DNA of 31,784 nucleotides, taken from a virus. A program made the position numbers and the translations under genes. Under the pieces are notes generated by a model. It ran no database searches, was not told the origin of the DNA, and worked only from the letters and a program-made list of their open reading frames with translations. The stretch is taken from UHGV virus genome UHGV-0321443. One strand, 5' to 3'. How positions within the stretch are numbered: the stretch's first letter is position 1; each line of letters begins with the position of its first letter. This document shows, piece by piece, positions 2,952-7,182 of this stretch.

Positions 2952-3107
2952 TCAAAGAGACATGCCGATAATGGCATTAACCACGCATGACGCCATAAAC
3001 ACGCCGCCAACGATGAAGCTGGCTTGGTTCTTCCTGGTAGCGCCAAGAGTCAACAGAACCACTGAAAGGGCAAAAAAAGGTATCGCGATTATGCTGAACG
3101 TGTTCAT
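2952..3107 (-). CDS. Small hydrophobic protein, 51 aa, two predicted TM helices
   Basis: Hand translation of the minus strand: MNTFSIIAIPFFALSVVLLTLGATRKNQASFIVGGVFMASCVVNAIIGMSL; SD GAGG 5 nt upstream of the ATG; 77 bp downstream of the cI stop on the same strand. Below the ORF-track size cutoff. Confidence 0.4.
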   Translation of the reverse strand: MNTFSIIAIPFFALSVVLLTLGATRKNQASFIVGGVFMASCVVNAIIGMSL

Positions 3108-3184
3108 GTTGACCTCAACTTATTTCGATTCTCCATCACCCTTAATCCGCCGCCCCATGTGTTTGTTGTGATTCGTTGCTGGCC

Positions 3185-3901
<717 letters not shown>

Positions 3902-3908
3902 TTAAATC

Positions 3909-3972
3909 TATCACCGCAAGGGATAAATATCTAACGCCGTGCGTGTTGACTATTTTACCTCTAGCGGTGATA
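3909..3972. promoter_or_regulatory. oR3-oR2-oR1 operator array with overlapping divergent pRM/pR promoters
   Basis: tatcaccgcaagggata (3909..3925), taacgccgtgcgtgttg (3932..3948), tacctctagcggtgata (3956..3972); pR reads TTGACT (3946..3951) - 17 nt - GATAAT (3969..3974) towards cro. Confidence 0.85.
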
Positions 3973-3989
3973 ATGGTTGCATGTACTAA

Positions 3990-4199
<210 letters not shown>

Positions 4200-4337: not shown

Positions 4338-4634
4338 ATGGAACAAACAAGTTACAGCAAACTATCACAGCGCGACGTTGATCGCGCAGAAACAGATTTA
4401 CTTATCAACCTGTCAACGCTTACCCAGCGCGGTCTGGCAAAGATGATTGGCTGTCATGAATCGAAGATAAGCAGAACGGACTGGAGATTTATTGCTTCGG
4501 TCTTGTGTGCTTTCGGAATGGCATCAGACATCAGTCCGATTAGCAGGGCTTTTAAGTATGCGCTTGATGGACTCACCAATAAAAAACGCCCGGCGGCAAC
4601 CGAGCGTTCTGAACAAATCCAGATGGATTTTTAA
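4338..4634 (+). CDS. cII: CII-like transcriptional activator (mosaic: divergent N-terminus, lambda-like C-terminus)
   Basis: C-terminal TNKKRPAATERSEQIQMDF matches the lambda CII C-terminus from memory; the N-terminal two-thirds differs; located right of cro and nutR. Confidence 0.75.
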   Translation: MEQTSYSKLSQRDVDRAETDLLINLSTLTQRGLAKMIGCHESKISRTDWRFIASVLCAFGMASDISPISRAFKYALDGLTNKKRPAATERSEQIQMDF

Positions 4635-4655
4635 CTGCTTTCTATGGAGTTAATT

Positions 4656-5456
4656 ATGGCAAAAAAACCTACACCAGACCAGGTAAAAAAGATTCGTTCC
4701 GGCATTACCAAGAAAATACGGTTTGAGGTTTTCAAGCGCGATGGCTTCAAATGCCAGTACTGTGGGAGTTCTGCGCCAGACGTCATCCTTCATGTCGACC
4801 ATATCAACCCAGTTAGCAAGGGTGGCGATAACGACATGATGAACCTTATTACTTCTTGCGATAGTTGTAATGGCGGGAAAAGCGACAAACTGCTCAGCGA
4901 TAACTCAATAATGGAAAAGCAAAGGCAGCAACTCCAGGAACTTAATACCAAGCGAGAGCAACTGGAGATGATGATCAAGTGGCGAGATGGTCTTAAGAGC
5001 CTGAAAGACGATGTTGTTGATATTGTCGCTACCAAAATTGACGACTGCATTGCACCATTTACTGTTAATGACAATGGGCGAAAATCTATCAAGAGATGGC
5101 TTCGAATATATAAGCTTGAAGAAATCCTCGATGCGATTGAGATTGCCGCAGATAAAAAACTCACCCAAGAAATAACCCATGAGCTTACTGGTGAATTCTT
5201 TGAGTACATCCCTCGCATAGCAGCGACAAAAAGAAAACCGCCAAAAGAACAAAGGATTCTATACATCAGAGGAATCCTTAAAAACCGCATATATATCAAT
5301 CAAAACCATGTAATGAGTTATCTCAAGGCATGGCTTTCATACGACTTAGATCTCGATGAACTTACTGAGTTTGCGAAAACAGTACCTAACTGGACAACGT
5401 TCAAGGAGTGGGTATCTGAACGCATTCGTGAAGCTCAGGAAGAACTCCCGTACTAA
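4656..5456 (+). CDS. HNH endonuclease-domain protein with an unknown C-terminal domain
   Basis: HNH motif region CQYCG...HVDHINPVSKGGDNDMMNLITSCDSCN; SD GGAG before the ATG at 4656; visibly AT-richer than neighbouring genes. Confidence 0.65.
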   Translation: MAKKPTPDQVKKIRSGITKKIRFEVFKRDGFKCQYCGSSAPDVILHVDHINPVSKGGDNDMMNLITSCDSCNGGKSDKLLSDNSIMEKQRQQLQELNTKREQLEMMIKWRDGLKSLKDDVVDIVATKIDDCIAPFTVNDNGRKSIKRWLRIYKLEEILDAIEIAADKKLTQEITHELTGEFFEYIPRIAATKRKPPKEQRILYIRGILKNRIYINQNHVMSYLKAWLSYDLDLDELTEFAKTVPNWTTFKEWVSERIREAQEELPY

Positions 5457-5467
5457 AGGTGGACAAA

Positions 5468-6334
5468 ATGGCACGTTCAAGAAATATCAAACCAGGCTTT
5501 TTCACCAATGATGAATTAGCTGAGTGTTCTCCATATGCCCGTCTCCTTTTTGCCGGGTTATGGACTATTGCTGACAAAGAAGGGCGGTTGGATGATCGCC
5601 CAAAGAAAATTAAAGCAATGGTACTGCCTTTCGATGATGTGGACTGCAATGATCTGCTTCAGCAGCTTCACAGTCACAAATTCATCAACCGATATCAGGT
5701 AAATGGCGGCTCATATATCCAAATCAATAACTGGAAAAAGCACCAGAACCCTCACTGCAAAGAAGCAGCCAGTGAGATACCAGAACCAGTAGAGAACAAT
5801 AACAGCACCATGCAAGTACAGTGCAAGGACGATAAAGAGGAAGAGAAGGAGGATGCCGAATCACTACAAGTCATTGAAAACAATGGAGCACCAGAAAAGC
5901 ACCATGCAAGTACAGTGCAAGAACCAGTAGAGAACAGTTTAAATCCTGCTGATTCCCTTAACCTGATTCCTGATTCCCTTTCTAACACCCAAGCCGCTGA
6001 CGCGACTTGTGAAGGGGGTGGGGCTGATGTCCATAAAATTTCAAGTCGCTATGCATTCGAAGGAAATATCGTTCGGTTAAACCACAAGGACTACGAAGCA
6101 TGGAAGCGCCTGTATCCGAACATTGACCTGAATTACGAACTGGAAAGGCTGGATATCGAATTTAGCCATGAGAAGCCAAAGAACTGGTTTATCACTGCCA
6201 GCCAGAAACTCAGCTACCAGAACAAGCAGGCGTTATCCAGACCGGTACGCAAGGTTGCTAATGGACTTAAGGCTGAAAACTTTGCCACCAAAGATTACGG
6301 ACAAACTGAAATGCCTTCATGGGCGCAGGAGTGA
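5468..6334 (+). CDS. Replication initiation protein (O-like replisome organiser)
   Basis: N-terminus MARSRNIKPGFFTNDELAECSPYARLLFAGLWTIADKEGRLDDRPKKIKAMVLPFDD resembles phage replication-initiator N-domains; SD AAGGTGG; contains internal direct repeats; followed by the helicase-loader gene. Confidence 0.65.
   Translation: MARSRNIKPGFFTNDELAECSPYARLLFAGLWTIADKEGRLDDRPKKIKAMVLPFDDVDCNDLLQQLHSHKFINRYQVNGGSYIQINNWKKHQNPHCKEAASEIPEPVENNNSTMQVQCKDDKEEEKEDAESLQVIENNGAPEKHHASTVQEPVENSLNPADSLNLIPDSLSNTQAADATCEGGGADVHKISSRYAFEGNIVRLNHKDYEAWKRLYPNIDLNYELERLDIEFSHEKPKNWFITASQKLSYQNKQALSRPVRKVANGLKAENFATKDYGQTEMPSWAQE
5781..5985. repeat. Iteron-like direct repeats inside the O-like gene (candidate replication origin)
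   Basis: gaaccagtagagaaca occurs at about 5785 and 5922; caccatgcaagtacagtgcaag at about 5816 and 5901; tgattcc(c) occurs three times in 5951..5980. Confidence 0.5.
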
Positions 6335-6336
6335 AC

Positions 6337-7182
6337 ATGACGCTGGATGAAAAGATCTCGCAACTGGAGAAAAAACTTGCAGAATTGAGTTCTCCGCCAA
6401 TTGCTATCGAGCATACAGCTGTAGAAATTGGCACTGGCATCTGTGAAAAACATGGTGAGTTTGAGCAGCGTAACCGTTATTCGACAGGGACAATTAAGTT
6501 TGCCTCAAGACCTAGCGAATGCCCGGAATGCATGAGAGATGAGCTTATTCGGCTACAGGCAGAGAAGATTAAAATCGACGAAGAATCACGTAAGCGCAAT
6601 GTCGAGTTTCTGTTGAATAATCTTGATATTCCTGAACGATTCAAGGGTTGCACACTACAGAACTACGAGCCAGTCAACGACGATGCAAAGAGAGTGCTCA
6701 GGGTGTGTCAGGCATACGCCAGCAAATGGCCTGAGAGGTTACAGAAAGGCGGTGGGCTGGTTATGTGTGGAAAGCCTGGTACTGGAAAGAATCATCTTGC
6801 ACTGGCTATCGCCCGGCACGCAATTACGGAACATCAAAGCTCAGCTATTTTCACAACGGCGCTGAAAATTGCCAGAGAATATAAATCAACATGGTCGAAA
6901 AACTCCACCCGCACAGAGGATGAAGTGATCCGACAGTTCACTAAACCTGACCTGCTAATTATCGATGAGGTTGGTGTGCAGTTTGGAAGCGAGGCGGAAA
7001 AGATGATCATGTTCGAAATCATCAACACCCGCTACGAGCGCATGAAGCCAACAATCCTGATTAGCAACCAGAGCAAAGATGAACTTTCGGCATTCATTGG
7101 TGAGCGTGTTATTGACAGGATGAATGATGGCGGCGGATGCACCCTTGCGTTTACATGGGATAGTTACAGGAGCAGATCGTGA
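6337..7182 (+). CDS. DnaC/IstB-like AAA+ ATPase (replicative helicase loader)
   Basis: Walker A GKPGTGKNHLALAIA and Walker B LLIIDEVG; start immediately follows the O-like stop, with SD AGGAG. Confidence 0.8.
   Translation: MTLDEKISQLEKKLAELSSPPIAIEHTAVEIGTGICEKHGEFEQRNRYSTGTIKFASRPSECPECMRDELIRLQAEKIKIDEESRKRNVEFLLNNLDIPERFKGCTLQNYEPVNDDAKRVLRVCQAYASKWPERLQKGGGLVMCGKPGTGKNHLALAIARHAITEHQSSAIFTTALKIAREYKSTWSKNSTRTEDEVIRQFTKPDLLIIDEVGVQFGSEAEKMIMFEIINTRYERMKPTILISNQSKDELSAFIGERVIDRMNDGGGCTLAFTWDSYRSRS

Follow-up and report, generated by a model that had tools for sequence, protein, structure and literature searches.

The origin of phage lambda consists of four ~19-bp iterons within gene O, next to an AT-rich unwinding region, and at bacterial oriC the 3-nucleotide (nt) DnaA-trios come after the DnaA boxes, always in this order and on the same strand. 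In phage SPP1, oriL is located within gene 38, the product of which (the replisome organizer gp38) binds direct repeats in its own gene, and the helicase loader comes next (PMC6316719). In the staphylococcal multiresistance plasmid pSK41, the N-terminal domain of Rep binds Rep boxes lying centrally within rep; the linker for which the origin DNA codes can be dispensed with, and the C-terminal domain is specific to the host (PMC5703833). The design of an origin inside the initiator gene is already known from these systems (lambda O, SPP1 gp38, pSK41 Rep). Here we analyzed the virus genome UHGV-0321443, a stretch of 31,784 nt hereafter termed the window, and focused on a cluster of repeats within its putative replication initiator gene. 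We propose that these repeats are probably the cis-acting replication origin of the phage, placed in the linker-coding part of its own initiator gene. Judged from the sequence, 5781–5980 would be the origin and 5886–5980 its conserved core. An earlier annotation made from the letters alone (the sequence-only reading) had suggested a lambda-type origin inside an O-like gene. The position, which is that of lambda O, the location in a linker segment and a layout found in hundreds of relatives agree with this suggestion, but the units differ: they are 11-bp-phased semi-palindromes and 7-nt direct repeats, not four 19-bp lambda iterons.

Two classes of repeats in the linker-coding segment

The direct repeats A and B, arranged as A-B and then B-A, and the three TGATTCC heptamers described by the sequence-only reading are exact copies that occur far above chance (Table 1). 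The longest direct repeat in the open reading frame (ORF) is 24 nt, compared with a mean of 8.8 nt and never more than 13 nt in 300 codon shuffles. On the plus strand of the 31.8-kb window TGATTCC occurs three times, all within the array, where ~1.6 copies per strand are expected by chance and 0.002 in any 40 nt. Elsewhere the window holds no further copy of either class of repeat. What had been overlooked are the five-unit 11-nt arrays underlying both A/B clusters. Unit B corresponds to two adjacent 11-mers and unit A to the next 1.5 11-mers; the permuted arrangement, previously considered unusual, is the cyclic order of unit variants in two arrays of 11-nt register (a1 a2 b1 b2 x in array 1 and y b1 b2 a1 a2 in array 2). 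The NAGNAC register starts at 5781, 5792, 5803, 5814 and 5825 in array 1, and at 5886, 5897, 5908, 5919 and 5930 in array 2. These are the only phased NAGNAC runs of at least three units on either strand of the window; shuffled windows contained 0.01 runs of at least three units and none of five. The cores of the 11-nt units are semi-palindromic, reading G(C/T/A)AC, one base, GT(G)C, and the resulting inverted repeat inside unit B accounts for terminator-like matches at this position. Tandem Repeats Finder reported only a 7-nt period (x2.3), missing the 11-nt period because the units are too divergent. The most conserved element of all is the TGATTCC array, which the earlier annotation had mentioned last.

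Table 1. Coordinates of the repeats, the initiator gene and its neighbors in the window
Feature	Position	Strand	Remarks
Unit A, copy 1	5782–5798	+	AGAACCAGTAGAGAACA, 17 nt; codon phase 0
Unit A, copy 2	5920–5936	+	AGAACCAGTAGAGAACA; codon phase 0
Unit B, copy 1	5804–5827	+	AGCACCATGCAAGTACAGTGCAAG, 24 nt; codon phase 1; peptide STMQVQCK
Unit B, copy 2	5898–5921	+	DNA identical to copy 1; codon phase 2; peptide HHASTVQ
11-nt array 1, five units	5781–5835	+	CAGAACCAGTA, GAGAACAATAA, CAGCACCATGC, AAGTACAGTGC, AAGGACGATAA; holds first A/B copies
11-nt array 2, five units	5886–5940	+	GAGCACCAGAA, AAGCACCATGC, AAGTACAGTGC, AAGAACCAGTA, GAGAACAGTTT; holds second B/A copies
TGATTCC heptamers	5950–5956, 5964–5970, 5971–5977	+	codon phases 2, 1, 2
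Heptamer array on 21-nt unit	5949–5980	+	CTGATTCCCTTAACCTGATTC; strand-specific, extremely conserved
Imperfect dyad	5990–6009	+	CAAGCCGC-TGAC-GCGACTTG; just after heptamers; peptide NTQAxxxxC
Replication initiator gene	5459–6334	+	291-codon ORF (ORF list); PHROG 17247/16167/12556
Initiator gene 3' end, last 20 codons	6275–6334	+	mosaic joint
cI	3185–3898	minus	
cro	3999–4199		
cII	4338–4634		Pfam Phage_CII
HNH endonuclease gene	4644–5456		directly upstream of initiator gene
DnaC-like helicase loader gene	6319–7182	+	overlaps initiator gene end; IstB_IS21 1.8e-18, Bac_DnaA 2.6e-8 (Pfam)

The repeats are DNA-level elements. The alternative that they matter only through the encoded peptide, set beforehand as the refutation of an origin, is contradicted by the reading frames, the 11-nt period and the codon choice. 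One and the same heptamer is translated as L-I-P or (x)-D-S, and the phase in which its TGA would be a stop codon is never used. Throughout the family the heptamers are spaced by 7, 14, 15 or 21 nt and occupy only codon phases 1 and 2, so that these spacings keep the TGA out of the stop phase. The 11-nt period runs through all three frames and therefore cannot encode a peptide repeat. In the linkers of 91 non-redundant genes, pairs of AGNAC were counted 101, 71 and 61 times at distances of 11, 22 and 33 nt, with almost none elsewhere, and this phasing is absent from the N- and C-terminal parts of the same genes. A motif-free autocorrelation over 55 non-redundant, protein-retrieved genes gave identities of 0.45, 0.40 and 0.40 at lags of 11, 22 and 33 nt over a baseline of 0.25, with no 3-nt signal.

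The heptamer array yielded a similar picture. Three or more TGAnTCn within 60 nt are present in 49 of 55 protein-retrieved genes and in none of 1100 codon shuffles, retrieval by protein removing most, not all, of the bias of a search by DNA motif. Within the arrays the codon shares of GAT, ATT and TCC are 98%, 97% and 86%, against 56%, 37% and 12% outside, a count that is partly circular since many loci were found through a DNA 22-mer. This preference is unchanged in GC-rich genes, although ATC and GAC dominate outside the arrays of these genes. When compared with distant relatives, the window has identical codons at 21–44% of the conserved N-domain residues, and shares exact stretches of 16–43 nt in the heptamer array. 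Furthermore, the peptides between the heptamers vary (SPIPLTDS, GFLIPDS, LSSDS) and the heptamer is constant.

The repeats code for residues ~105–171, which are essentially the linker between the N- and C-terminal domains of the initiator. In an AlphaFold2 model built on 62 sequences, residues 1–110 (coded by 5468–5797) form a confidently predicted winged helix, with a predicted local distance difference test score (pLDDT) above 90; residues 112–200 are a disordered linker with pLDDT below 50, and confidence in the C-terminal domain is only moderate. Relatives differ at the exposed positions of the predicted recognition helix (~60–69), and the invariant residues are found in the N-terminal arm (RxRNIKPxFF) and in KHQNPH. 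Mutual information between N-domain columns and 11-mer type or heptamer variant was dropped, given too many 11-mer types and confounding by descent. The ORF opens at GTG 5459; ATG 5468 is likely the true start, because the relatives begin with MARSRNIKP.

The protein matches PHROG 17247, 16167 and 12556, annotated as 'replication initiation protein', and has homologues in 6737 clusters, almost all named 'hypothetical'. Searches against Pfam, NCBIfam and the PDB sequences gave no match to the initiator. No Pfam family matched the window protein (E-values up to 0.01) or any of 14 N-domains (E-values up to 1), and neither Phage_rep_O nor Phage_rep_org_N (PF09681) nor RepA_N (PF06970) matched seven full-length relatives (E-values up to 0.1). 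The name 'O-like' given by the sequence-only reading is thus justified by position (cI-cro-cII-HNH-initiator-loader) but not by membership in any of these three families. The homologue in Hafnia phage yong1 carries a depositor's note of Phage_rep_org_N, though no Pfam match was obtained.

Some further features of the segment were observed. Over the 11-mer arrays (5741–5940) the coding strand is 66% purine, with 42% A and 12% T; the heptamer array (5941–5985) is pyrimidine-rich with a GC skew of -0.5, yielding a sharp switch of composition between the two repeat classes. Upstream, 5738–5755 (AAGCACCAGAACCCTCAC) codes for the invariant KHQNPH, and its first 11 nt form an iteron-like unit (compare GAGCACCAGAA at 5886). 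The peptides EKH and PEKH recur through the linkers of relatives. Given both likenesses, the linker repeats may have arisen by duplication of the KHQNPH-coding segment. The codons of KHQNPH differ among relatives (CAT or CAC), indicating that this motif is conserved as protein.

Conservation of the layout among phages of many hosts

In megablast searches, 5942–5980 of the window is 100% identical in Vibrio phages, and the heptamer region is 97–100% identical over 31–38 nt in Acinetobacter and Pseudomonas phages; no other DNA similarity between these phages and the window was detectable by megablast. At least 120 IMG/VR contigs and 74 stretches of GTDB species genomes contain the exact 22-mer CTGATTCCCTTAACCTGATTCC. 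Among these species are Gamma- and Betaproteobacteria and Bacillota (for example the isolates Shimazuella kribbensis DSM 45090 and a Desulfotomaculum), together with metagenome-assembled genomes (MAGs) labelled Chloroflexota, Acidobacteriota, Bacteroidota, Planctomycetota and Vampirovibrionales. All 113 complete ORFs holding the 22-mer begin with the same ~105-residue domain (MARxRNIKPxFF ... GLW..AD..GRLE ... KHQNPH), behind which at least 10 unrelated C-terminal domains are found; the ORFs form 31 clusters at 60% identity, with many unrelated C-termini following the same N-domain and array. Among distinct homologues retrieved by protein, 65 of 67 contain at least two clustered heptamers, always on the coding strand, and no heptamer excess was seen outside the initiator gene. 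A more divergent set of 55 genes contains the variants TGATTCC (95), TGAATCC (41), TGATTCA (26), TGATTCT (22) and TGACTCC (13).

The N-domain was found in 177 phage records, including phages of Pseudomonas, Ralstonia, Bordetella and Myxococcus and many actinophages, and hundreds of relatives show the layout, which in actinophages is built from other sequences. In Ralstonia phage RSK1, six 11-mers of the ACAGTGC(A/T)AG type (ACAGTGCAAGC-type), arranged as a 33-nt tandem duplication, precede four TGATTCC. In the mycobacteriophages Butters and Donovan, three or four 11-nt units with the palindrome CTCGCGAG precede four GGAACAG heptamers at a spacing of 7–8 nt; Streptomyces phage Austintatious also has a GGAACAG array. 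Further 11-mer types are TAACnGTTA, TAACNGTTA, GACCAAGG, AGCCnnnGGCT and TCAAGCATGAA, and semi-palindromic cores such as GCACnGTGC, TAACnGTTA and CTCGCGAG recur with the 11-nt period. On sequence comparison, it is the layout rather than the sequence that appears conserved: KHQNPH, then helically phased and often palindromic units, then a heptamer array on the same strand. The 11-mers diversify freely, whereas the heptamer is nearly unchanged within Proteobacteria and Bacillota. Array 2, directly 5' of the heptamers, is the array conserved family-wide.

The heptamer array changes its copy number by slippage with the ORF unharmed. The window is one 21-nt unit (CTGATTCCCTTAACCTGATTC) short of Escherichia phage Louie, HK639, yong1 and most E. 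coli copies, and most of the 19 E. coli genomes holding the region have one such unit more than the window. The lengths of the Salmonella homologues step by 7 residues (288, 295, 302, 309, 316 and 323). Together, the additional E. coli unit and these steps indicate that the linker tolerates copy-number change. It also accommodates larger insertions: between KHQNPH and the heptamers, some relatives carry an HNH domain, and gene 19 of Mx8 has a T5orf172 (GIY-YIG-like) domain. Both these inserts and the HNH genes upstream of the initiator are probably homing-type endonucleases exploiting a conserved target.

A mosaic joint is also present at the 3' end of the gene, where the last 20 codons are 95–100% identical by megablast to the 3' ends of 'replication protein O' genes in N7, mEpX1 and CurroJimenez. 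Since these phages carry the same downstream DnaC-like gene, the C-terminal tail goes with the loader. The last 20 codons are thus likely a loader-contact tail as well as a mosaic junction.

Copies of the heptamers were also found apart from initiator genes. In Undibacterium species (three loci) and in a Pseudomonadota MAG, four to six TGATTCC are intergenic, between DUF1428-like and creatininase-like genes, at the same chromosomal locus in several species. Some of these stand-alone loci have a AGTACTGTGCGAGCAC-like stretch upstream, and none has an initiator N- or C-domain. They might represent the non-coding remains of a prophage, or act as a decoy titrating phage initiators. Prophages with the full gene are also present in these genera (five loci). 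Moreover, the Rhodocyclaceae MAG JADJAS010000005.1 contains, on the reverse strand at ~6956, the spacer CTGATTCCTGATTCCCTTAACCTGATTCCTGAA in an array of clustered regularly interspaced short palindromic repeats (CRISPR) with the repeat GACGCCCGGCTCACGTGAGCCGGGCGAGGATTGAAAC. Such a spacer directs host immunity against the conserved heptamer array and is expected to match a very large number of phages. If the array is indeed an origin element unable to drift, as in the bolder version of the model given below, hosts could exploit it, whether by such a spacer or by the Undibacterium copies, which might titrate initiators.

The origin reading and its rivals

Assuming that the repeats are the origin, we propose a putative model for initiation. 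Dimers of the N-terminal winged helix would dock onto the phased 11-bp units, which recur once per helical turn along one side of the DNA, and would oligomerise. Specificity may reside in the 11-mers, because their sequences differ from lineage to lineage, as do the exposed positions of the predicted recognition helix. The heptamer array would be read by the invariant part of the N-domain and would provide a second anchor, or else the point at which one strand is captured and opened. The N-domain is the only protein segment common to the phages that share the heptamer; a phage reader of the heptamer must therefore be the N-domain, and the alternative reader would be a factor universal to bacteria, for which no plausible candidate could be named. 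The variable C-terminal domain and the tail would recruit the phage's own DnaC-like loader with host DnaB. Without an AT-rich element, opening might occur within or beside the heptamer array, or at a distant element. A bolder version, which we put forward only tentatively, is that the TGATTCC (TGAnTCC) array might be an undescribed origin element used across phyla, read strand-specifically by the invariant RxRNIKPxFF and KHQNPH and serving as a strand-capture or opening site beside the 11-bp iterons. Such an array would be the phage counterpart of the DnaA-box/DnaA-trio arrangement, with no AT-rich element needed.

Several points weigh against the assignment of the repeats as origin. The AT-rich unwinding element that the sequence-only reading had suggested looking for beside the repeats was not found: the GC content around the repeats is 0.42–0.53, and the lowest value over 40 nt within 5300–6500 is 0.30, at 5479 at the gene start. 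The most AT-rich 40 nt of the whole window, with a GC content of 0.15, lie at ~7522 in the intergenic segment 7470–7547, 1.5 kb downstream of the repeats between a MarR-like gene and the next ORF, and this would be the obvious alternative spot for an unwinding element. Iterons within an initiator gene can have roles other than initiation, namely autoregulation or control of copy number. Exact copies of array 1 are confined to the closest relatives; HK639 retains it in part, and in yong1 most of it is gone. It is therefore a lineage-specific extra, leaving array 2 and the heptamers (5886–5980) as the core. The pairing of the 11-mers with the variable recognition helix, and of the heptamers with the invariant arm and KHQNPH, is one that we infer. 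The circularity of the codon shares and the residual retrieval bias of the protein-retrieved sets, given above with the counts, count here as well, and no paper on the origin of this initiator family was found in the searchable literature.

Some of these points feed a rival explanation that we consider rather unlikely, in which the repeats are initiator or regulator sites with another cis role (autoregulation, copy control, a centromere-like function or packaging) and the origin is elsewhere. Two sets of five 11-bp repeats resemble parC of plasmid R1, plasmid iterons often also act in control, and the AT-rich element is not beside the repeats but at ~7522. However, the phage is an integrating P22-like lambdoid phage, and no partition genes are annotated in its 97%-identical relative Louie; the centromere picture of five plus five units is at odds with the poor conservation of array 1; and the terminase genes are far away. 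A promoter scan found no promoter-like site in or near the repeats, and the repeats strictly accompany the initiator N-domain in phages of many morphotypes and hosts. It is highly improbable that the repeats matter as protein, with short linear motifs of the linker (xDSLNLIPDS, ASTVQ, EKH) binding a host replication protein and the DNA identity arising secondarily from codon preference and recent transfer. Two peptides, ADSLNLIPDSL and (A/T)STVQ, do recur across the family, in a segment predicted to be disordered, the usual place for linear motifs. Nevertheless, this explanation has to face one DNA read in different frames (STMQVQCK and HHASTVQ for unit B, LIP and DS for the heptamer), an 11-nt period incompatible with any peptide period, inter-heptamer peptides that vary while the heptamer stays, a codon choice opposing host bias in GC-rich genes, and the non-coding heptamer copies of the Undibacterium chromosomes. 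A dual role as DNA and peptide is possible.

The array might also be a recombination or homing junction, either providing micro-homology for swaps of the C-terminal domain or being a target or co-conversion tract of HNH or GIY-YIG endonucleases, so that horizontal spread explains the exact identity across hosts. We regard this as unlikely. It would fit the location of the array precisely where the conserved N-domain gives way to one of at least 10 unrelated C-termini, the T5orf172 domain in the Mx8 linker, the second mosaic joint at the 3' end, and the HNH gene directly upstream in the window, a similar one being located upstream of 14 and inside 2 of 132 non-redundant initiator genes. Yet ~88% of these genes have no detectable HNH nearby, and the five HNH genes of Louie are free-standing and scattered through its genome. 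Moreover, synonymous sites are saturated in the N-domain, the segment separating the HNH gene of the window from the array, which argues against recent co-conversion. A junction also leaves unexplained why the units are phased at 11 nt and have semi-palindromic cores, why order and strand are fixed, and why actinophages have the layout with other sequences. The shuffling at the array more probably results from its conservation than accounts for it. For the same reasons of frequency and scatter (~12% of the non-redundant initiators; Louie), the neighboring HNH protein is unlikely to participate in initiation.

We therefore retain the reading of the repeats as the probable origin. If it is true, the position of the origin would be known for a very large group of phage and prophage replication modules that lack annotation (more than 6700 protein clusters), spanning Shiga toxin (Stx)-converting, Salmonella, Klebsiella, Pseudomonas, Acinetobacter, Vibrio and actinobacterial phages. 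It would also supply a rule for finding origins, namely 11-nt-phased units followed by a TGAnTCC array directly after KHQNPH, and a handle on origin opening without an AT-rich element. The variable 11-mers could define incompatibility or specificity groups, and the heptamer array would be a broad CRISPR or probe target against this class of phages. DNA that is letter-exact across phyla amid synonymous saturation is unusual, and points to a recognition step unable to drift. In the searchable literature we found neither the initiator family, nor the two-part repeat grammar, nor the letter-exact conservation of the heptamer across phyla, and string searches for TGATTCC and LIPDS returned nothing relevant.

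Genomic setting and comparison with described systems

Gene order and Pfam matches place the repeat region in the early-right operon of a P22-like lambdoid phage. By megablast, the closest records are the Escherichia phages Louie and Dewey (97% identity) and an Stx1a-converting phage, with HK639 (77%) and yong1 (74%) as more distant DNA relatives. Louie is integrase-bearing and P22-like, and the counterpart of the loader in this phage is annotated as 'DnaC-like helicase loader'.

The dyad just after the heptamers is conserved in the enterobacterial subfamily only, with 53 sequence variants, some of which form a perfect 7-bp stem (CAAGCCG-AAAAAA-CGGCTTG). Pairing holds for 86% of cells, position 5 being mismatched in 13 of 21, and no compensatory change was seen; the dyad was thus not counted as part of the origin. 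A search of both strands of 5300–6500 against Rfam gave no match at E-values up to 1. A match to the consensus of integration host factor or of DnaA boxes, checked only by eye, was rejected.

Plasmid-database matches to the initiator gene are mostly phage-sized circles. A 6.2-kb E. coli 'plasmid' was rejected as a mini-replicon, being a linear assembly fragment with a frameshifted gene call. The Klebsiella pneumoniae plasmid NZ_CP130687.1 encodes, at 3001–3984, a relative with the same N-domain (43% identity) and a C-terminal DnaT DNA-binding domain (PF17948, 8e-17); a lambda-P-like gene follows it. Such C-terminal DnaT domains account for the database names 'primosomal protein I' and 'DnaT-like' of some members.

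Two sets of described phage proteins were set aside. The 'RepA-like' proteins of mycobacteriophages are cluster A prophage RepA, related to mycobacterial plasmid RepA, with no repeats reported (PMC7157519), and the Eru1–3 replication types of Stx phages involve other proteins, with origins not discussed (PMC8044961). A close parallel in domain organization is pSK41 Rep, with a winged-helix N-domain of ~110–120 residues, a central linker coded by origin DNA (in the window, by the putative origin) and a C-domain that differs with host or partner (PMC5703833). The window protein differs from it in having no RepA_N (PF06970) match and in belonging to phages and prophages across phyla rather than to Firmicute plasmids. 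Its units are 11-bp phased and accompanied by an extremely conserved heptamer array, which is not known to have a counterpart in RepA_N origins, and its putative partner is a DnaC-like loader, whereas pSK41 Rep contacts DnaG.

As in SPP1, the origin-like repeats are inside the initiator's own gene and are followed by a helicase loader; SPP1, however, has an AT-rich unwinding element and a second origin copy, oriR, elsewhere in its genome. No AT-rich element was found beside the repeats of the window, which has no second copy of either repeat class, and the window protein has no Phage_rep_org_N match. The resemblance to the basal unwinding system of oriC, in which double-strand sites are followed by a short tandem repeat on one strand, is an analogy only: the proteins, the repeat lengths (7 nt versus 3 nt) and the sequences are unrelated, and single-strand reading of the heptamers is likewise suggested by analogy. 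Relative to lambda, the initiator is not homologous to O in any Pfam search run, and the origin would be built from five plus five phased 11-bp units with an added heptamer array. What the two loci have in common is the position in the order cI-cro-cII-initiator-loader, a putative origin between the DNA-binding and the partner-binding parts of the protein, repeat units with dyad symmetry, a loader immediately downstream, and a 3' tail of the gene common to O-like genes with the same loader.

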